The position numbers and the translations under genes are program-made. Below, in pieces: positions 4,643 through 20,428 of a DNA stretch of 64,000 nt. Below the pieces are notes generated by a model. It saw only the letters and a program-made list of their open reading frames with translations, did not search any database and was not told where the DNA came from. Origin of the DNA: an uncultured Chloroflexia bacterium (GTDB lineage Bacteria; Chloroflexota; Limnocylindria; Limnocylindrales; CSP1-4). Location: positions 10,516 through 74,515 of the forward strand of contig CAWBTQ010000003.1 in NCBI GenBank assembly GCA_963791725.1, given 5' to 3'. Numbering within the stretch: position 1 is the first letter of the stretch; each line of letters starts with the position of its first letter.

Positions 4643-6765
4643 GCCCCCGCGGTCAATCGCGCATCTTGACCGTCACGGGCCTGACGCGCGCCGCTGTTGC
4701 GTCGCTGGTCGGAGCGCTGCTGCTTGCTGGCTGCGCCGGGCCCTCGAACTCGCCGTCTGCCAACGGATCGGCGCCCAGCCAGCTCGTGTCGCCGGCGATA
4801 GTCGACCACTCGCCGCCCATCGGCGCCACAGCCGCCGTAGACGACGCCGCCTGGTCGTTGGCGGATCGTCTGACACAGCCCACATACACGAGGGACGCGA
4901 CGGCCGCGCTGGTGGCGGGGCTGGCCCGTTCTGGCATCCCCACGTATGTAGACCCGAGCGCGGCCGTCCCAGAAGTGCCCGTGGTCGGCCCCGTTAGTCC
5001 GTTGCAGGTGCTCGACATGCAGGCCCACGCGCTCGCCGTGGGGGCCTGGGCTGGCAGCACCTTCAGCGGCTCCGAGCTCGACGCCGTCGTGCCGCTACCC
5101 GACGCCCTGACCGGGATGGCACCCACGTCCGCCCTTCTCGCCGGCTACGTGGCCGCCGCCGACTCTCCGGGCGGTGCTTTGTCGCGCGCTCTGATGGCCG
5201 GCCAGGACCTTCTCCACCCCGCGACGCTGCGGTTTCCCGCGCTCGTGCTCGTCCTGTTCGCCTCGGATCTGACGACCGATGGCGGGCGACTCGGCGCGCC
5301 GAGCCCGCGCCCGAGCGGCACAAACGCCGCCCTCGCTCCAGCGCGTCTGCTTGCCTTCACGCGTGGCGGGCCAGCCGTTGCTGGCGAACCGGCAATCGCC
5401 ATCGATACCCTCTGCTCGGACGGCGCGAACTGGGTCCAAAGCATGCTTGGGCGATTCTTCAATGCGCTCAAGCTGGCCACGCCGAACAACCTGCCCGGGG
5501 CCATCGTCACCTCCATCTGGAACTGGGTGGTTGACAGGCTCCAAGGGGTGGTTCAGGGCCTCGTAAGCAGCGTCACCGACGCGGTCCTGGGCACCGTCCG
5601 CAGCATCGCCGGGACCATCGCCGCCGTGGCAGAGCAGATCTCCTCATTGTTGCCGTACGCGGTCAAGGTCTCGGCCAGCCATACCAGCGGGCCCGGTGGG
5701 GCGACGTTCGTCCTGCAGACGACGAGCGCGCAGTCTGGCGCGTTCACGGCAGCGGTCAGCGCCGGTGACCTGCCGACCTGGCCGCCCATGCTTCAGAACT
5801 GTGCGAGCACTCTGCAGGTGTCCTTGCCCAACTTCCAGGCCCACGGCGTGCCCCTGACCTGGGGGCCGCTTGTGGCGCCTACAGCCCCTTTGCTTTCGCC
5901 CCTCGACAGCGACCGTACGAACGACCTGACCGACGCACAGGGCCAGGCCAGCTGGCTTTTCCTCGCCGCCCGCGATCCCGGCGATCCGACGGGCGAACGG
6001 CGCAGCCAGCTCGACATTATGCCGGTGGCCGTTCATCGTCCGGAGCTAGACGAGGCCCGCTCACGGCTGACCACAGCCCTCCTGGGCTTCATCCCGAGCC
6101 TGTTGCGACCTTTCGTCGCGTCTCTCTTCGCGCCGTACATCGATGGCCTGCAGTCTCGCCTCAACACGCTACTCGATGCTCGTGGTACCGGCGTCGCGGC
6201 GCTCGTCTATCACGCCAAGGCCGCACCCACGCCGTCATCGTCGACAAGTCCCGGACCGTCGGGAGCCTGCAGCCCAAACCCCGTTTCGCCGGGCTCATAC
6301 AGCGGCACTTTCACGCTCGCGTCGACGACAATCGTGTCGGCGCCTGACGGAACCCGGACATCGGTTACCACCGACAATGGCACCGGCCCCTTTAGCGTGA
6401 CCGCGTCGTCCGGGGGCTTGCTCGCGGGGACGTTCCAATACGAAACGCACAGCGATGAGGTAATAGACGCGGGCCCGGCCGTCGATGAGCAGGTCTCGAC
6501 GATGACGATGAGCGGCTCCACGGTGGGCGGCACGGCCTGCAACATGGTCCTGGCTTTCGGCACTTCGGTGACCACGAGCTGCCACGACCAGGTCTTTGGG
6601 GACTGCTCCGGCGGCTCGATTTCGCTGGCTGGGGACAGACTCTCGATCGGGCCGCCGACCTCGGTGGCAGGCGGCCACATCACCTGGGTTTTCCATAACG
6701 AAACGAAGGTCGCCGGGAGCGTCGACGTCACGACAACGATCACAGTGAGCGTGAGCGGGCCGTAG
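4639..6765 (+). CDS. large exported lipoprotein of unknown function
   Basis: 708 aa. Lipobox LLLAGC-A. Ser/Thr/Gly-rich C-terminal beta-rich region. No recognisable catalytic motif. Confidence 0.6.
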   Translation: MSPRGQSRILTVTGLTRAAVASLVGALLLAGCAGPSNSPSANGSAPSQLVSPAIVDHSPPIGATAAVDDAAWSLADRLTQPTYTRDATAALVAGLARSGIPTYVDPSAAVPEVPVVGPVSPLQVLDMQAHALAVGAWAGSTFSGSELDAVVPLPDALTGMAPTSALLAGYVAAADSPGGALSRALMAGQDLLHPATLRFPALVLVLFASDLTTDGGRLGAPSPRPSGTNAALAPARLLAFTRGGPAVAGEPAIAIDTLCSDGANWVQSMLGRFFNALKLATPNNLPGAIVTSIWNWVVDRLQGVVQGLVSSVTDAVLGTVRSIAGTIAAVAEQISSLLPYAVKVSASHTSGPGGATFVLQTTSAQSGAFTAAVSAGDLPTWPPMLQNCASTLQVSLPNFQAHGVPLTWGPLVAPTAPLLSPLDSDRTNDLTDAQGQASWLFLAARDPGDPTGERRSQLDIMPVAVHRPELDEARSRLTTALLGFIPSLLRPFVASLFAPYIDGLQSRLNTLLDARGTGVAALVYHAKAAPTPSSSTSPGPSGACSPNPVSPGSYSGTFTLASTTIVSAPDGTRTSVTTDNGTGPFSVTASSGGLLAGTFQYETHSDEVIDAGPAVDEQVSTMTMSGSTVGGTACNMVLAFGTSVTTSCHDQVFGDCSGGSISLAGDRLSIGPPTSVAGGHITWVFHNETKVAGSVDVTTTITVSVSGP

Positions 6766-13886: not shown

Positions 13887-14287
13887 CGCCGTTCCTCACT
13901 GACCACCGGCACGCTGACTACCTCCGAATCGGTGGTGGGCCCAGAGGCGGCGGAGTGCCTCGAGTACCCGCGGCCAGGGGATCGGATCGAGGCCATGCAG
14001 ATGGGGAGCGCTTCTGGTCCACGATGGTGCTCCTTCGCACGGACCGTATCCGTCTTGACGCGTCGTGGCTGTCTACGGCTCGCCCCGTCCCACGCTTTGC
14101 GGGGCGCACGTGCCGGGCCAGAGATGGGGCGCTGTGAGATTCGCGACTTCGGGACGACGCGGCGGGGTTTCAGGGTCCGTCGTCCGCTCCGCCCTCGCCG
14201 CAGATGAGAGATCGCGGTGCCGCGGGACCGCGGCGGCTGTAACCTCTGCGTTGCAGGATGGCGCGACCGACGGAGGAGCATTCGAGA

Positions 14288-15568
14288 ATGGGCGACTCGC
14301 TCAAGATCGGCAAGTCGGCGGGGCCGGCAGGCAAAGCCACTGGAATCGCGGCGCCAGCTCAGGACGCTCCGGCAGCACAAACCGCGTCTCTCGTCCTGGT
14401 CCCACCCGCGGCCGTCGCGGTAGTCGAAGAGCGCGAGGCCGCCGGCTCGATCAAGCTCGACGCCGCCACCCTGGCCAAGCTCGACGGCATGGTCGCCGAC
14501 TACGTCGCAGCCATCTCTCAGCTCGACGTAAGTGATCCGAAGTTCGAGTCGCGGATCGCCGACATCCGAACGCTGGGCAACGAAGACGTCAAGGCCGCCT
14601 CGCAGGTCTCCTCGCGCCTCCTCGATCGACCGGTCGGATCGATGCAGAAGGGCGGGCTCGCCACCTCCGCCACCGTGTCCACGAGCCTGCTGCAACTGCG
14701 CCGCCAGATAGACGCCCTCGATCCGAGCCACCAGGGCGATCTGTTCAGCCCGCGCAAGCTCCTCGGCGTCATCCCATTCGGCGACCGGCTGCGCAGCTAC
14801 TTCGCCCGCTACCAGTCGAGCCAGGGCCACATCAACGCCATCGTCGGCGGCCTCGAACGAGGCCAGGCGGAACTGGCCAAGGACAACGCCGACCTCGAGC
14901 GCGAGAAGGAAAACCTGTGGCAGACGATGGAACGTCTGCGCCAGTACATCTATCTCGCCCAGAAGCTCGACGCGAGCCTGACTGAGCGCATCGCCAGGGT
15001 CGAGGCGACGGATCCGGAGCGGGCCCGAGTCCTCAAGGAGGACATGCTCTTCTACGTGCGCCAGAAGGTGCAGGACCTGACCGCACAGCTGGCCGTGAGC
15101 GTCCAGGGCTACCTCTCGATCGACGTGATCCGGCGCAACAACCTCGAGCTGATGCGGGGCGTGGACCGGGCCACGACGACAACGGTCTCGGCACTGCGGA
15201 CGGCCGTGATAGTCGCCCAGGCGCTCGGCGACCAGAAGCTCGTCCTCGACCAGATCACCGCCCTCAACACGACCACTTCCAACCTGATCGAAAGCACCTC
15301 GGCGATGCTTCGCCAGCAGTCGGCGACGATCAACGAACAGGCGTCGTCGTCAACGATCGAGCTGGAGAAGCTGCAGGCGGCATTCGACAACATCTACGCG
15401 ACGATGGACGAGATCGACGCTTTCAAGCTCAAGGCGCTCGACTCGATGACCAAGACGGTCGACGCGCTCACGACCCAGATCAACAAGGCGCAGTCGTACC
15501 TGGATCGCGCCAAGACTGGCGAACCGGCGGCGACCCGGATCGAGGGCGGGACGGCCAAGCCGCACTGA
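14288..15568 (+). CDS. telA: toxic anion resistance protein, TelA/KlaB family
   Basis: Long coiled-coil protein with TelA-like middle and C-terminal regions. I prefer the ATG at 14288 (GGAGG 11 nt upstream) over the ATG at 14258. Confidence 0.8.
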   Translation: MGDSLKIGKSAGPAGKATGIAAPAQDAPAAQTASLVLVPPAAVAVVEEREAAGSIKLDAATLAKLDGMVADYVAAISQLDVSDPKFESRIADIRTLGNEDVKAASQVSSRLLDRPVGSMQKGGLATSATVSTSLLQLRRQIDALDPSHQGDLFSPRKLLGVIPFGDRLRSYFARYQSSQGHINAIVGGLERGQAELAKDNADLEREKENLWQTMERLRQYIYLAQKLDASLTERIARVEATDPERARVLKEDMLFYVRQKVQDLTAQLAVSVQGYLSIDVIRRNNLELMRGVDRATTTTVSALRTAVIVAQALGDQKLVLDQITALNTTTSNLIESTSAMLRQQSATINEQASSSTIELEKLQAAFDNIYATMDEIDAFKLKALDSMTKTVDALTTQINKAQSYLDRAKTGEPAATRIEGGTAKPH

Positions 15569-15790
15569 TCGTCGGCATCGGCGCCGGTCGGCGCCGCCGG
15601 AGCAAGGCGACTCTGACGCGAAGCTAAGCGTCGCCGAGCGCAGGCCGCGGCGAGCGGCAACCGGATCGTCAGGCGCCCGATCGTCGAGCATCGGCGCCGG
15701 TCGGCGCCGCCGGGGCAAGGCGACTCTGACGCGAAGCTAAGCGTCGCCGAGCGCAGGCCGCCGCGAGCGGCAACCGATCGTCAGGCGGGC
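15568..15790. repeat. 112-bp intergenic tandem duplication (2 copies) between convergent telA and merR-arsC; each copy carries GC-rich stem-loops
   Basis: Copy 1 is 15568-15679 and copy 2 is 15680-15790. They differ by 3 substitutions and 2 single-base indels. Each contains GGCGACtctgACGCgaagctaaGCGTCGCC and GGCGCCggtcGGCGCC. The unit is bounded by ATCGTC direct repeats. Confidence 0.8.
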
Positions 15791-16611
15791 GCGCCCTCCG
15801 GCGCTCGGCGGGCGCGTCGGGCCAACTCGACGAACGGACGAAGCCGCGTCGCCACCTCGGTCCGCGTCCGTCGGAAGGCTTCGAGCTTCTGCTCGTCCGT
15901 GCCCTCGACCTCGGCCGGGTCGTCGAGGCCCCAGTGGAGTGAGTTGTGTTCGCCCGGGAAGACCGGACACGTCTGGCGGGCTCGATCGCAGACCGTGATG
16001 ACATAGTCGAACCGCTGGCCGAGGAACTCGGTCACCGACTTGCTCTTCGCGCCGGACCAGTCGATGCCGATCTCGCCGAGGGCCCGAACCGTGTAGGGGT
16101 TGACGCCCTTTGGCTCGGTTCCCGCGGACAGTGCCTCGAACTCGGCGCCGCCGAAGTCGCGCAGCAACGCCTCCGCGATCTGGCTGCGCGCGGAGTTGCC
16201 GGTGCAGACGAAGAGAACTCGGATCGGTGCGGCCATGGTTTCCTCCCGGGTGCGCCGGGCTCGGCCGGCGGCGGCGATTGTCAACTCCAGATCGATCAAC
16301 TCCGCGTCAAGGCGGTCGAGGTCGGAACGCTGGTGAGAAATGGCGGCGCGCTGGCGGGCGATCAGCGGCTCGAGATCGATATCGATTTCGCCGCGGTCGA
16401 CGCACAGCGATGCGAGCCGGCCGGCTTCGACGGGTGGGAGTCCCAGGCGGCGCAGCGCCACGACCAGGCTCAGGCGGCTCAGCGCATCATCGCCGTAGTC
16501 CCGGTAGCCATTCTCGCCACGAGCCGCCGGCGGGAGAACTCCGGTCTCCTCGTAGAAGCGTATGGCAGAGGGGGCGACGCCGGCGCGTCGGGCGAGCTCG
16601 GAGACCTTCAT
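15781..16611 (-). CDS. arsC: MerR-family HTH regulator fused to low-molecular-weight-phosphatase-type arsenate reductase (ArsC)
   Basis: N-terminus: MerR HTH MKVSELARRAGVAPSAIRFYEETGVL plus a coiled-coil dimerisation helix. C-terminus: LMW-PTP fold with CTGNSARS (CX5R P-loop) and downstream Cys/Asp typical of thioredoxin-coupled ArsC. Confidence 0.85.
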   Translation of the reverse strand: MKVSELARRAGVAPSAIRFYEETGVLPPAARGENGYRDYGDDALSRLSLVVALRRLGLPPVEAGRLASLCVDRGEIDIDLEPLIARQRAAISHQRSDLDRLDAELIDLELTIAAAGRARRTREETMAAPIRVLFVCTGNSARSQIAEALLRDFGGAEFEALSAGTEPKGVNPYTVRALGEIGIDWSGAKSKSVTEFLGQRFDYVITVCDRARQTCPVFPGEHNSLHWGLDDPAEVEGTDEQKLEAFRRTRTEVATRLRPFVELARRARRAPEGAPA

Positions 16612-16713: not shown

Positions 16714-17058
16714 CTATGTCGGCCGCGTCAGCGCCAGGACCGTCGGCTTTCCGGAAAGCGCGGCGGCCGTGCGCGGGAGCCCCGGCACCAACTCCCCTGC
16801 CAGCTCGCGGAAGCGGGCTACGGCCTCAGGCCGGAGCGAGTAGTAGATCCACGTCCCCTTGCGCTCGGTCGTGACCCAGCCGGCGGTCCTCAGAACGCGC
16901 AGGTGGTGCGACACGGTGGGCTGGCCAACCGTGCAGCAGTCGGCAAAGTCGCAGGCGCAGACGGCGCCGTCGGCGCTCAGCTCGCGGAGTATCGAGAGTC
17001 TTGCGGGGTCGGCGGCCGCCCGAAGGAGCAGGACGTCCGGATCGGTCGAGCGTTTCAT
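16714..17058 (-). CDS. arsR: ArsR/SmtB-family metalloregulator
   Basis: Start MKRSTDPD at 17058. wHTH with metal-site CACDF (CVC-type As(III) site). A 5' ORF extension to 17283 would overlap the arsM promoter and is unlikely. Confidence 0.85.
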   Translation of the reverse strand: MKRSTDPDVLLLRAAADPARLSILRELSADGAVCACDFADCCTVGQPTVSHHLRVLRTAGWVTTERKGTWIYYSLRPEAVARFRELAGELVPGLPRTAAALSGKPTVLALTRPT

Positions 17059-17139
17059 GTTCTCAAGGATATCGACTAATTTCGATATTGACAACCGTCG
17101 ATATAGCCGATATGGTAGGCTCCGAAAGGAGATCGAAGA
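17059..17139. promoter_or_regulatory. arsR/arsM divergent control region: -35 TTGACA (17088-93), 17-bp spacer, -10 TATGGT (17111-16), SD AAAGGAG; overlapping CGATAT dyad/direct repeats (candidate ArsR operator)
   Basis: Dyads ATATCGA-ctaatt-TCGATAT (17069-17088) and ATATCGAC...GTCGATAT flank the -35. A further CGATAT lies at 17108. AT-rich island in GC-rich DNA. Confidence 0.45.
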
Positions 17140-17307
17140 ATGTCGATCCATTACAGCCCCGAGCTCGTCAAGACGCTCATGAACGAGAACCTGCGCGAGG
17201 CGCGCCGAGCCATGGAGGTCCACTGCTGCGAGGAGCCGCGGGTCGAGCCCAGGCGCTCCTTCCGCAGCCTCTTCCGGCGCCAATCCTCCGCCGCGTGCGG
17301 ATGCTAG
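17140..17307 (+). CDS. small Cys-rich ORF (55 aa) between arsR and arsM, not in the ORF track (<60 aa)
   Basis: MSIHYSPELVKTLMNENLREARRAMEVHCCEEPRVEPRRSFRSLFRRQSSAACGC*. SD AAAGGAG 8 nt upstream. Strongly G/C-biased third positions. Vicinal CC and C-terminal CGC resemble the Cys-rich tail of the adjacent ArsM (…SCGCGSCCG*). Confidence 0.4.
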   Translation: MSIHYSPELVKTLMNENLREARRAMEVHCCEEPRVEPRRSFRSLFRRQSSAACGC

Positions 17308-17317
17308 GGAGCCCCTA

Positions 17318-18142
17318 ATGACCGCCGAGATCCACGAAGAGGTCCGCCTCCACTACGCGGAAGCCGCCCGGGGCGTCGCCTCCGGCGAGTCGTGCTGCAG
17401 CGACAGCGGCAACTACGGCAGCGAGCTCTACTCCGCTCTCGAGCGCAACGAGCTTCCCGACGCGGCCGTGATGGCATCGCTCGGCTGCGGCAACCCCATC
17501 GCCGTCGCCGATCTGCGCGAAGGAGAGCGGGTTCTGGACCTGGGTTCCGGGGGCGGCATCGACGTGCTGCTGTCGGCCAAGCGGGTCGGGCCGAGCGGCC
17601 GGGCCTTCGGTCTCGACATGACCGATGAGATGCTGGCTCTCGCTCAGAGCAACGCCGCCGCTGCCGGCGCCACGAACGTCGAATGGCTCAGGGGCCAGAT
17701 CGAATCGATCCCGCTGCCCGCAGCCTCGATCGACGTCGTCATAAGCAACTGCGTCGTGAACCTGGCCGCCGACAAGCCGTCCGTCTTCCGAGAGATCGCG
17801 CGTGTCCTGCGGCCGGGCGGACGAATCGGCATCACCGATATCGTCGCCGACGACTCGCTCACGCTCGAAGATCGGCGCGAGCGCGGATCGTACGCCGGCT
17901 GCATCGCCGGCGCCCTGTCGTTCTCTGAGTTCCGCTCAGGGCTGGAGGAAGTCGGACTCGAGGACGTGTCCCTGACCGTCACCCACGAGGTCGCCGATCG
18001 GCTGTTCAGCGTCATAGTCAAGGCCCGCAAGGGGCCTGGTTCGGGCGATGAGAAGGCGGCGTACCCCGCCCACGCAGAAAGCGCGAAAACCGAGGCCGCT
18101 GCCGTCGCCCAGTCGTGCGGCTGCGGGAGTTGCTGCGGATGA
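17318..18142 (+). CDS. arsM: arsenite S-adenosylmethionine methyltransferase ArsM
   Basis: SAM-MTase motif I VLDLGSGGGID. Conserved As(III)-binding cysteines (ESCCSD, LGCGNP, AGCIAG). Cys-rich C-terminal tail. Confidence 0.9.
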   Translation: MTAEIHEEVRLHYAEAARGVASGESCCSDSGNYGSELYSALERNELPDAAVMASLGCGNPIAVADLREGERVLDLGSGGGIDVLLSAKRVGPSGRAFGLDMTDEMLALAQSNAAAAGATNVEWLRGQIESIPLPAASIDVVISNCVVNLAADKPSVFREIARVLRPGGRIGITDIVADDSLTLEDRRERGSYAGCIAGALSFSEFRSGLEEVGLEDVSLTVTHEVADRLFSVIVKARKGPGSGDEKAAYPAHAESAKTEAAAVAQSCGCGSCCG

Positions 18143-19464
18143 TGGCGGTCGAACGCGCGCTCGACTCGGATCGACCTGCGATCGAGGGCTTGCTGAACGC
18201 AAACGAACTGCCGCTGGACGGGCTCGAGACCGCACTGCAGACAGCTGTCGTCGCCCGCGCCGCCGGGGGCGTCGTTGGTTGCGCGGCCATCGAGCCGTAC
18301 GGTCCGGTCGGGCTCCTACGGTCCGTCTGCGTCGCGGCCGAATTGCGCGGTTCGGGCGTAGGCAGCCGGCTTGTTGCCGCCGCCGAGGCCCTGGCGGCCG
18401 AGCGCGGCATCAAGGATCTCTACCTGCTGACCGAAACGGCCGAGTCGTGGTTTCCGCGCCTCGGCTATGTGGCGGCGGCGCGAAGCGCGGTCCCGGCGGA
18501 GCTGACGGCGTCACCGGAATTTGCAGGCGCATGCCCGGACAGCGCAGCGGTCCTGCACAAGCGCCTGCAGTCGTCTGCGGCGAGACTCGAGGAGCCGAAG
18601 CCGGGTGCCCGAACGAGCCAGGCAGCCACGACAGCCTCGGTGGCACCGGCGGCGACGTCCGGGCCTCAGCCCGCCGCCCTCGAGCCAGCCCCGGACCGGC
18701 TCCCGGCCGTCTACCTCGGCCACGGCGCGCCGAACCTGATCGACGACCAGCTCTGGCCGGTCGAGCTGGCCGCATGGGCAAAGGAGATGCCGCGCCCCAG
18801 GTCGATCCTGGTAGTGAGCGCACACTGGCAATCCGCGCCGCTCACCGTCGGGGCGGTCAACCGTGCGCCGCTCGTGTACGACTTCTACGGCTTCCCCGAG
18901 CGTTACTACCAGATCCGCTACGACTCCCCCGCCGCCCCGGATCTCGCGGCACGAATCAAGGCACTGATGCCGCCGAGCGAACCGGTGGCGCAACGCGAGC
19001 GCGGCCTGGACCACGGCGCATACGTGCCGCTGCTGGTCATGTATCCGGAGGCCGACATCCCTGTCTTGCAGATGTCGATGCCGGACCTGGCGCCACAGCG
19101 CCTCTTCGAAATCGGCCGGCGGCTGGCGCCCCTGCGCGACGAGGGCGTCCTGATCATGGGCAGCGGCTTCATGACCCACGGGCTGCCGTTCGTTCACGAC
19201 TACTGGGACGGCCGGCCGGGCGCGCCCGAATGGTCGGCCGAGTTCGACCTCTGGGCAGCCGAGATGCTCGAGAAGGGCGACGTCGACTCGCTGTTCGACT
19301 TCCGCAACAAGGCCCCCGGCATGCCTTTCGCCCATCCAACGGTCGAGCACTTCGCGCCGCTGTTTGTCGCGCTGGGCGCCGCGACCGACCCGACGGCGGC
19401 TCCGAAATTCACGATCGAGGGCTACTGGCTGGGCCTGGCCAAACGTTCGTTCGAGGTCCGCTGA
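18139..19464 (+). CDS. fusion protein: ArsN-like GNAT N-acetyltransferase (N-term, ~150 aa) + class III (LigB/DODA-type) extradiol ring-cleavage dioxygenase (C-term, ~270 aa)
   Basis: The start ATG at 18139 overlaps the arsM TGA (ATGA). GNAT core AIEPYGPVGLLRSVCVAAELRGSGVGSRLV. A Pro/Ala/Thr linker follows. The dioxygenase module matches the YgiD/DODA fold (LGHGAPN, SAHWQSAPL, MGSGFMTHGL, PTVEHFAPLFVALGA). One continuous frame. Confidence 0.8.
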   Translation: MMAVERALDSDRPAIEGLLNANELPLDGLETALQTAVVARAAGGVVGCAAIEPYGPVGLLRSVCVAAELRGSGVGSRLVAAAEALAAERGIKDLYLLTETAESWFPRLGYVAAARSAVPAELTASPEFAGACPDSAAVLHKRLQSSAARLEEPKPGARTSQAATTASVAPAATSGPQPAALEPAPDRLPAVYLGHGAPNLIDDQLWPVELAAWAKEMPRPRSILVVSAHWQSAPLTVGAVNRAPLVYDFYGFPERYYQIRYDSPAAPDLAARIKALMPPSEPVAQRERGLDHGAYVPLLVMYPEADIPVLQMSMPDLAPQRLFEIGRRLAPLRDEGVLIMGSGFMTHGLPFVHDYWDGRPGAPEWSAEFDLWAAEMLEKGDVDSLFDFRNKAPGMPFAHPTVEHFAPLFVALGAATDPTAAPKFTIEGYWLGLAKRSFEVR

Positions 19465-19642
19465 CGGGCTGAGGATTCGCCCGGGCCGGCGAAGCCGGCC
19501 GCCGATCGGCACGCGGCGTCAACGTTCTTGACCCGCGGCGCTGCCCTCCGGTACCATGCGCAGCGCTAATTCCGAGTAACTAAGTAAGAATTGCGCGCCG
19601 TGGCCGCCCGCCGCCGCGCCCCGTCCCTGCCGAGAGGAACAG

Positions 19643-20428
19643 ATGAGCTTTGCCCAGACGGTGATTCTTGCCGCGTTCGCCGGTGGGACGATATTCCTCG
19701 GTCTCCCGGTAGGCAGGATCCGCGGGCTGTCGCGCAGGTGGCAGGCGACGCTTACGACCACTTCTGGCGGCGTGATCCTGTTCCTCATCTACGACGTGCT
19801 CTCCCAGGCAGTACAGCCGGTGAGTCACGCGCTCGATGACGCGCGGAGCGGCGGCTCCCCCGCCACCTTCCTGGGCTATGCGGCCGTGCTCGGCACCAGC
19901 GTCGCGTGTGGACTGCTGTCGGTCACCTACGTGACCTCGAAGATGCCCGGCCGGCAGGGCGGCGCCGCCTCCATATCGCCGCGCCAGATTGCGATCGGCA
20001 CCGCGATCGGTCTGGGGTTGCACAACTTCTCAGAGGGCCTCGCCATCGGTCAGTCCGCCGCGACGGGTGCCACGTCGTTCGCGCTCTTGCTGGTCATGGG
20101 CTTCGCCCTCCACAACACGACCGAGGGATTCGCCATCGCCGCCCCACTGGGCCAGGGCGAGAAGCCGAGCTGGACCTTTCTCGGGGCCGCCGGGATCGTC
20201 GGCGGAGGGCCCACCTTCATGGGCGGCATCCTCGGCTATTCGATCGTATCGCCGACCCTCTCGATCCTATTTCTCGGGCTCGCCGCCGGTGCGCTCATCT
20301 TCGTCTTCAACGAGACCATGGCCGTGGCCCGCCGTTTCTCGCTGCCGATGGTGACCGGTGTTGCCCTGACCATCGGGCTCCTCGCCGCCTTCGGAACGGA
20401 CTTCCTCCTCTCGGCCGCGGGGGCCTGA
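19643..20428 (+). CDS. ZIP-family (ZupT-like) divalent metal transporter
   Basis: Signatures GLHNFSEGLAIG and HNTTEGFAIA. 8 TM. SD GAGAGGAA upstream. Confidence 0.85.
   Translation: MSFAQTVILAAFAGGTIFLGLPVGRIRGLSRRWQATLTTTSGGVILFLIYDVLSQAVQPVSHALDDARSGGSPATFLGYAAVLGTSVACGLLSVTYVTSKMPGRQGGAASISPRQIAIGTAIGLGLHNFSEGLAIGQSAATGATSFALLLVMGFALHNTTEGFAIAAPLGQGEKPSWTFLGAAGIVGGGPTFMGGILGYSIVSPTLSILFLGLAAGALIFVFNETMAVARRFSLPMVTGVALTIGLLAAFGTDFLLSAAGA

Follow-up and report, generated by a model that had tools for sequence, protein, structure and literature searches.

ArsN2 is clade 2 of the GNAT N-acetyltransferases of arsenic-resistance (ars) operons and was defined by its likeness to the GNAT domains of N-acetylglutamate synthase (NAGS) (Nadar et al. 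2019, PMC6465285). Its substrate is not established in the literature (PMC6465285, PMC12607644, PMC13163355). In this study, we analysed a stretch of 64,000 nucleotides (nt) of DNA from an uncultured Chloroflexia bacterium (contig CAWBTQ010000003.1; hereafter the window), in which the last gene of an ars operon joins an ArsN2 domain to a class III extradiol dioxygenase of the YgiD/DODA type (hereafter LigB). Because no substrate has been established for ArsN2, no function can be transferred to the ArsN2 half. The arsN2-ligB fusion is real, very rare and evolutionarily young, and it joins two known domains. We consider it probable that the fusion is a recent, lineage-specific product of genome erosion, not a dedicated arsenic enzyme.

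Among the dioxygenases that bear comparison, ArsI belongs to the vicinal-oxygen-chelate (VOC; type I extradiol) fold. ArsI is the C–As lyase of ars operons and a non-haem Fe(II) dioxygenase (PMC6138428), as the dioxygenase of the window is predicted to be of the Fe(II) type. However, the fold of the window enzyme is that of LigB, no ArsI or glyoxalase/VOC family was found among the Pfam and NCBIfam matches of the fused protein, and no sign of C–As bond cleavage was seen here. Ring opening of o-aminophenols, as reduced roxarsone would require, is known in class III from 2-aminophenol 1,6-dioxygenase (AmnB or APD; PDB 3vsh, 8ihg and 7txy). APD uses a second subunit, whereas the dioxygenase of the window has no partner subunit. 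APD is of the same superfamily and gave the next-best Foldseek matches, but the identity was 16–18%, the template modelling (TM) score was 0.61–0.71, and its 2-His-1-Glu site (PMC11926856) differs from the 3-His DODA-type site of the window. The YgiD/DODA enzymes (2pw6, 8in2, 9j2l and 29ky) share with the window the fold (TM 0.83–0.88), the 3-His Fe site and the two catalytic histidines. In contrast to them, the window enzyme is 32–37% identical, scores 170.1 bits against NCBIfam PRK10628 (4,5-DOPA extradiol dioxygenase), below the equivalog cut-off of 233, has Ala197 in place of the substrate-positioning Thr17 of the Beta vulgaris enzyme BvDOD, and is made as the C-terminal domain of another enzyme. 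Adjoining ars-cluster genes are also found in one polypeptide in other fusions, for example ArsRM (PMC10190100) and the MerR-ArsC protein of the window itself. In those fusions both partners have arsenic roles, whereas the dioxygenase of the window comes from a separate marR-controlled unit.

The fused gene and its two domains

The features of the fused gene are given below, where L096 denotes the closest relative locus (LigB about 95% identical), which has the order arsN2 with stop TAG, DoxX (minus strand), marR, LigB.

18139–19464, plus strand: arsN2::ligB fused gene, 441 amino acids (aa) plus stop, final gene of the ars operon
18139–18567, plus strand: ArsN2 GNAT domain, residues 1–143, colinear with stand-alone 143-aa ArsN2 proteins
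18568–18570, plus strand: codon 144, CAG (Gln), at the site of the arsN2 stop TAG in the sister L096
18568–18588, plus strand: linker part 1, residues 144–150 (QSSAARL), arsN2 3' untranslated sequence in L096
18589–18696, plus strand: linker part 2, residues 151–186, homologous to LigB codons 2–38 of L096, with the LigB ATG lost
18697–19461, plus strand: YgiD/DODA-type class III extradiol dioxygenase core, residues 187–441 (PF02900 and PDB matches)

The gene runs for 441 codons and a stop in a single frame without interruption. Its ATG (18139–18141) shares the letters ATGA with the TGA of arsM (18140–18142), with GGGAG 9 nt upstream, and the same overlap with arsM was found for the stand-alone arsN2 of relatives. 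The identical 441-aa protein is recorded as P0001 on a 366-kb contig. Pfam GNAT matches covered residues 35–113 (Acetyltransf_7, E 1.9e-11; Acetyltransf_1, E 7.9e-10), and LigB (PF02900) covered residues 210–417 (E 1.3e-31; 110 bits against a gathering cut-off of 26.3). The NCBIfam ArsN2 family NF040501 matched residues 11–141 over profile positions 1–132 of 133, with 142.2 bits against a cut-off of 125. The AlphaFold2 model contained two confident domains, residues 1–147 and 185–441, with a predicted local distance difference test (pLDDT) score of 84–97; in the alignment used for it (A5), the N-termini of distant LigB sequences were misplaced. Since both domain matches are significant and both flanks of the junction are homologous to relatives, the fused feature is real.

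The ArsN2 half (pLDDT 87–95) carries the acetyl-CoA motif (R/Q-x-x-G-x-G/A) as R70-G-S-G-V-G75, read from the sequence. Foldseek matched this half to the GNAT domains of NAGS (3d2p, 5yo2 and 5yge), and the secondary NCBIfam matches were amino-acid N-acetyltransferases, which places it nearer to NAGS than to the PAT/ArsN1 enzymes. The half is thus like the ArsN2 family in its score above the cut-off, its 143 colinear residues, its position directly after arsM with the same ATGA, and its NAGS-like GNAT domain; unlike the family, it lacks a stop codon and continues into a C-terminal extension of 298 residues (linker and dioxygenase). The acetylation of arsinothricin that had been proposed for the GNAT domain fits ArsN1, not ArsN2 (PMC6465285).

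In addition, Cys48 and Cys132 (codons at 18280 and 18532) were invariant and Cys64 (18328) nearly so in a shallow alignment of 37 ArsN2 relatives, 58–81% identical. In the model, Cys48 and Cys64 lie on adjacent strands of one beta-hairpin. The three residues could form a possible As(III)- or thiol-linked site, as far as so shallow an alignment indicates.

The dioxygenase half matched 8in2, 29ky and Escherichia coli YgiD (2pw6) with E values of 1e-53 to 1e-44, and its model (pLDDT 84–97) gave Foldseek TM scores of 0.86–0.88 to 8in2 and 2pw6. In BvDOD of Beta vulgaris, the Fe ligands are His15, His53 and His229 and the catalytic residues are His119 and His175 (PMC11926856). The residues aligned to them, namely the Fe ligands His195, His229 and His404 and the catalytic His292 and His347, are all kept in the window and were invariant or nearly so in 125 relatives. 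Of the residues that position L-DOPA in BvDOD, Thr17 aligns with Ala197, and Asp254 and Tyr260 fall outside the aligned stretch. In 158 highly conserved columns, the LigB of the window deviates twice (H321R and Y397F); the median of the relatives was 1 and their 90th percentile 3.

The linker, residues 144–186 (43 residues, 129 nt), is disordered, with pLDDT below 50 for residues 148–184. Residues 142–186 contain 12 Ala, 7 Pro, 5 Ser and 4 Thr in 45 positions. An open frame over 45 codons is unremarkable at the local G+C content, the chance of finding no stop being about 0.39. The initial annotation had described the last gene of the ars operon, coupled to arsM, as an ArsN-type GNAT domain joined in one frame to a LigB/DODA-type dioxygenase through a Pro/Ala/Thr linker. 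This description held throughout: the uninterrupted open reading frame (ORF) and the Pfam and NCBIfam matches confirmed the architecture, the ATGA overlap confirmed the coupling, the place at the end of the operon was correct, the GNAT domain proved to be specifically ArsN2 by its score above the NF040501 cut-off, and the linker is disordered and composed of Ala, Pro, Ser and Thr.

Gene order in relatives and the origin of the fusion

Stand-alone orthologues of each half exist at 80% identity or more. The ancestral order, seen in L002–L009, L013, L016 and L096–L121, has on the left TelA and/or ArsC, arsR (minus strand), a small ORF, arsM, and arsN2 with its stop, and on the right a hypothetical gene of 400–450 aa, a LUD-domain gene (minus strand), marR, LigB and the ZIP gene, which is the conserved right-hand neighbour of LigB. 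In these relatives (Ca. Limnocylindrales) LigB stands alone, 1–5 kb downstream of arsR-arsM-arsN2, and is translationally coupled to marR through an 8-nt overlap of its ATG with the marR stop. The pair marR-LigB is also kept without arsM and arsN2 (L002–L005, L107, L109 and L117). Over the clade the spacer between arsN2 and LigB ranges from 118 to 4841 nt, and the hypothetical gene, the LUD gene and marR were lost stepwise.

Two further observations concern the genes of this neighbourhood. L013 contains only a 41-residue remnant of arsN2 (5795–5917) between arsM and the block of hypothetical gene, LUD gene, marR and LigB, which suggests that arsN2 itself can be lost here. In L105 (2695–3485) and L115 (945–1706, minus strand), a divergent ArsR/SmtB-type regulator and a small membrane protein are encoded just upstream of LigB, without marR. 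In L096, a DoxX-family gene has taken this place. The regulator adjoining this dioxygenase has been swapped several times.

At the junction, L096 reads AAG CGC CTC TAG and the window reads AAG CGC CTG CAG TCG TCT. The blastn homology to L096 extends to 18574, with weaker similarity for about 30 nt beyond the arsN2 stop. The flanks are colinear with L096 at 85–87% DNA identity on each side, and about 1.6 kb of L096 (DoxX, marR and intergenic DNA), up to the start codon of LigB, is missing from the window. In all stand-alone relatives, LigB has a low-complexity N-terminal extension of variable length and sequence. Judged from this comparison, the linker is mostly the low-complexity N-terminus of LigB itself, preceded by about seven codons of the former arsN2 3' untranslated region. 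Repeats at the deletion end points, which could have served as a recombination substrate or caused an assembly collapse, were sought in L006, L008 and L096, and none was convincing.

We also looked for separate expression of the dioxygenase. The linker contains no in-frame start with a Shine-Dalgarno sequence; the sole in-frame candidate, a GTG at residue 168, lacks one and was rejected as an internal start. A consensus scan of arsM and the fused gene gave no promoter-like site inside either. Hence, the dioxygenase is expected to be made only as part of the fusion.

No gene lies between arsN2 and LigB in four lineages, namely the window, L001/L092/L095, L012 and L093/L094, and the genes are fused in the first two. 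In L012 (metagenome-assembled genome fen_1051), the spacer is 132 nt with three stops, and LigB has its own ribosome-binding site and ATG. In L093 (4430–4640), and likewise in L094, the TAA of arsN2 is followed by 70 open codons in the LigB frame without ATG, GTG or TTG, and then by an intact, conserved LigB. This arrangement looks like an intermediate between deletion and fusion; readthrough, a non-canonical start and a very young pseudogene are candidate explanations of this LigB. L012 and L093/L094 had matched residues 1–441 in a tblastn search, but their genes are adjacent and unfused.

In neighbour-joining trees of ArsM, ArsN2 and LigB over 449 columns (INDEPENDENCE), the window grouped with L096 (bootstrap 100), L001 with L098 (97) and L012 with L115 (100), and the two halves analysed separately agreed. 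The sisters L096 and L098 retain marR and an unfused LigB. Since the regain of marR at the same site is implausible, the in-frame fusions of the window and L001 are independent. The fusion of L001/L092 arose from a MarR-containing ancestor, and at least four independent juxtapositions of arsN2 and LigB have occurred, two of them in-frame fusions. First, star-like trees that omitted the closest relatives had left room for one ancestral fusion common to the window and L001; the unfused sisters L096 and L098 overturned this reading. Consequently, the ratio of nonsynonymous to synonymous rates (dN/dS, ω) between the window and L001, once read as post-fusion constraint, is uninformative on the time after fusion.

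Between the window and L096 (dS about 0.4–0.5), ω was 0.16 for ArsM, 0.19 for ArsN2, 0.068 for the LigB core, 0.155 for the ZIP protein and 0.67 for the linker. For LigB, ω was 0.07–0.16 in every pair tested, with or without marR, including the marR-less pair L012/L115. By these ratios, both domains are under purifying selection and the linker is near neutral.

The rarity of the fusion, also noted in the initial annotation, was confirmed by a search for the same fusion, which found only the L001/L092 lineage besides the window. Among the best 120 of 7,943 scored relatives, both domains were present only in P0001 (the window) and P0002 (74% identical); the others were stand-alone dioxygenases of 254–314 aa with 71–89% identity, mostly from Ca. 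Limnocylindrales. The best 120 ArsN2 relatives (62–81% identity) contained GNAT domains only, at lengths of 135–217 aa, almost all 141–172 aa. A phmmer search found no two-domain protein in the 150 best cluster representatives of 1.84 billion, where fusions may hide behind stand-alone representatives, as the protein of the window is itself not a representative; since such a library hides close relatives behind one representative, this negative is weaker evidence. Beyond the window and L001/L092, the fusion was absent from 80 GTDB loci and 80 metagenome loci. Apparent long matches in Actinomycetota (L070 and L082, residues 66–440) proved spurious, as LigB stands alone there with a uracil-DNA glycosylase gene upstream. 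In 93 more distant LigB loci (58–77% identity), none had ArsN2 within 6 kb, none had a marR-like gene directly upstream, and one had real ars genes within 6 kb. ArsN2 and LigB are therefore not fused or linked across diverse lineages, although within the narrow clade their juxtaposition recurs independently. The searched literature contained no report linking a DOPA-type dioxygenase to an ars operon, nor any on an acetyltransferase for the roxarsone amine.

Weighing of the explanations

We propose the following course. The ancestor would have had (small ORF)-arsM-arsN2, then a spacer with the hypothetical gene, the LUD gene (minus strand) and marR, and then the dioxygenase and ZIP genes. A deletion from about 20–30 nt past the arsN2 stop to the start codon of the dioxygenase, about 1.6 kb relative to L096, together with a change of the stop TAG to CAG, would have made the dioxygenase the C-terminal domain of ArsN2, its disordered N-terminal extension serving as the linker. 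Given the strong purifying selection on the dioxygenase, deletion of its start codon would likely persist only where translation was restored. An in-frame join restores translation, and hence functional coupling is not needed to explain in-frame fusions; a random join would give an open in-frame junction with a probability of roughly 1/3 x 0.39. Most likely, as far as the sequence comparison allows, the product acts as two independent enzymes on one chain. The N-terminal domain would be a NAGS-like N-acetyltransferase of the ArsN2 type that depends on acetyl-CoA, and the C-terminal domain an extradiol dioxygenase with a 3-His Fe(II) site, cleaving a ring of the catechol type. The dioxygenase would thereby be freed from MarR, brought under ArsR and made 1:1 with ArsN2 from the predicted ArsR-controlled, arsenite-inducible promoter upstream of arsM.

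The initial annotation had suggested that the LigB domain cleaves an aromatic arsenical. This suggestion was not supported by the comparison: the orthologues at 80–95% identity are stand-alone and marR-coupled, with or without arsM and arsN2; ArsN2 was near none of the 93 distant LigB loci; and the fusion is explained by deletion and loss of the stop. A dioxygenase without ars association in relatives, named at the outset as what would speak against the suggestion, is largely what was found. The suggestion keeps a low probability on two grounds, namely the conserved place of the ars cluster beside LigB within the clade and the repeated, independent juxtaposition. Because the join arose by deletion of the genes between two neighbours, it is weak evidence for a new arsenic pathway.

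Several points weigh against an origin by erosion alone. The low ω of the LigB of the window could largely predate the fusion. L093/L094 carry a deletion with the arsN2 stop kept and no canonical LigB start, yet LigB is intact, which a simple filter letting only in-frame fusions survive does not predict. In L001/L092, a 1-nt deletion in a run of C near the 3' end of LigB (about L001 9153) shifts the frame of the last 47 residues, among them the third Fe ligand, giving a 403-aa product and a 47-aa ORF. Two 1-nt deletions also split the ZIP gene of this lineage (L001 9400–10300) into 84 and 144 aa. These changes are identical in the JGI and ENA assemblies of one population (0 mismatches in 13 kb). 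The sequence past the LigB frameshift is still conserved in the old frame, and hence the lesion is very recent or an error. Finally, the recurrent juxtaposition, twice in frame, could also mean selection for co-expression.

The last point leads to the explanation that survives best after erosion, namely that the coupling was selected because ArsN2 and the dioxygenase share a pathway or because one and the same arsenic stress requires both; we regard this as unlikely. Such a pathway might combine N-acetylation and ring cleavage of an aminophenol- or catechol-type arsenical, for example 3-amino-4-hydroxyphenylarsonate, or might act on a DOPA-like amino acid, whose ring-cleavage product could not cyclise once the amine was acetylated. 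The independent juxtapositions, at least four with two in-frame fusions, are consistent with such selection, as are the strong constraint on LigB after the loss of marR and the replacement of marR by an ArsR/SmtB-type regulator in the L105/L115 lineage. Furthermore, 2-aminophenol 1,6-dioxygenases rank next among the structural relatives of the LigB half, the ArsN2 fold resembles amino-acid N-acetyltransferases, and in most of the clade LigB has the ars cluster as its conserved neighbour on the upstream side. However, the clade is narrow (80–95% identity), and hence the shared neighbourhood may be inherited synteny only. Moreover, close relatives (the seven loci named above) have LigB with marR and lack arsM and arsN2, none of the 93 distant LigB loci has ArsN2 nearby, and none of the best 120 ArsN2 relatives contains a LigB domain. 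The spacer decays in many different ways, as neutral erosion predicts, and one fusion lineage (L001/L092) has a broken LigB C-terminus. The narrower claim, that repeated capture reflects selection and that both enzymes share an aromatic amino compound as substrate under arsenic stress, appears to us quite improbable.

It is more improbable still that the dioxygenase became dispensable once its regulator and start codon were lost, the fusion being a transient step to its loss. Decay of this kind would account for the L001/L092 frameshift that removes the third Fe ligand, the split ZIP gene, the LigB without an evident start in L093/L094, and the substitutions H321R and Y397F of the window at otherwise 95%-conserved columns. 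However, the LigB of the window is full length with its five key histidines present, and its two deviations are within the normal range. Its ω of 0.068 against L096 is the lowest of the four neighbouring genes, the marR-less lineages gave 0.07–0.16, and the lesion of L001 is very recent or an error.

The explanation that survives least, and that we hold to be scarcely credible, is an artefact in which the spacer was collapsed in assembly or the stop miscalled while the genes are really separate: the contig is metagenome-derived, the 441-aa protein is found in only one assembly (a one-member cluster) and an exact look-up gave no second contig, but the flanks are colinear with L096 at the identity given above, the end points are free of long repeats, the two genes meet in one frame without a frameshift, another population shows in two assemblies an independent fusion whose junction differs, and related deletions exist in L012 and L093/L094.

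The surrounding ars cluster and the meaning of the fusion

The neighbouring features in the window are as follows.

17318–18142, plus strand: arsM, arsenite methyltransferase (NF008823, 272.6 bits against a cut-off of 263)
17140–17307, plus strand: conserved 55-aa small ORF, first gene of the operon, with AAGGAG upstream, a C-terminal CxC and no family match
17066–17116: divergent promoter-like sites for arsR and for the small ORF and arsM (plus strand 17088–17116, minus strand 17094–17066), from the consensus scan only
16714–17058, minus strand: arsR, ArsR/SmtB metalloregulator, 114 aa from the ATG at 17058
15781–16611, minus strand: MerR helix-turn-helix domain fused to a low-molecular-weight-phosphatase-type arsenate reductase (ArsC), 276 aa
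19528–20428, plus strand: ZIP/ZupT-like transporter gene (19643–20428) with a promoter-like site (19528–19557), outside the fusion

The consensus scan for promoters found three sites, with 0.2 expected. The 55-aa ORF (MSIHYSPELV...HCCEE...FRRQSSAACGC; no Pfam family) sits between the promoter-like site and arsM. Its homologues precede arsM in at least eight other distinct loci, namely L096 (85% identical), L013, L008/9, L099, L100, L098, L093/94 and L012, and most keep the C-terminal CxC. The ORF may encode a small Cys-rich arsenic-related protein. The fusion of the MerR domain and ArsC was also found in L001/L092 and L002, and L008 has a separate ArsC of 166 aa. A TelA-family (toxic anion resistance) gene adjoins the ars cluster at 14258–15568 (plus strand). 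TelA, ArsC, the ars genes, the dioxygenase and the ZIP transporter form a stress-related neighbourhood conserved in the clade.

ArsN2 occurs widely among ars operons, and function has classically been inferred from gene fusions, so that the fusion looks like a lead. Its worth as a clue is reduced, as it is a young product of spacer erosion and nothing else ties the dioxygenase family to arsenic. If the two enzymes did share a substrate, the fusion would give the first substrate clue for ArsN2 and would extend organoarsenical metabolism by a ring cleavage of class III. Taken as a product of erosion, the locus belongs to a natural series of full spacer, partial spacers, adjacent genes, genes adjacent in frame with one stop, and true fusions, which shows how a gene can be rescued by fusion to its upstream neighbour after the loss of its regulator and start codon. 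The locus also allows a cheap test for any role of a YgiD-type dioxygenase under arsenic stress.

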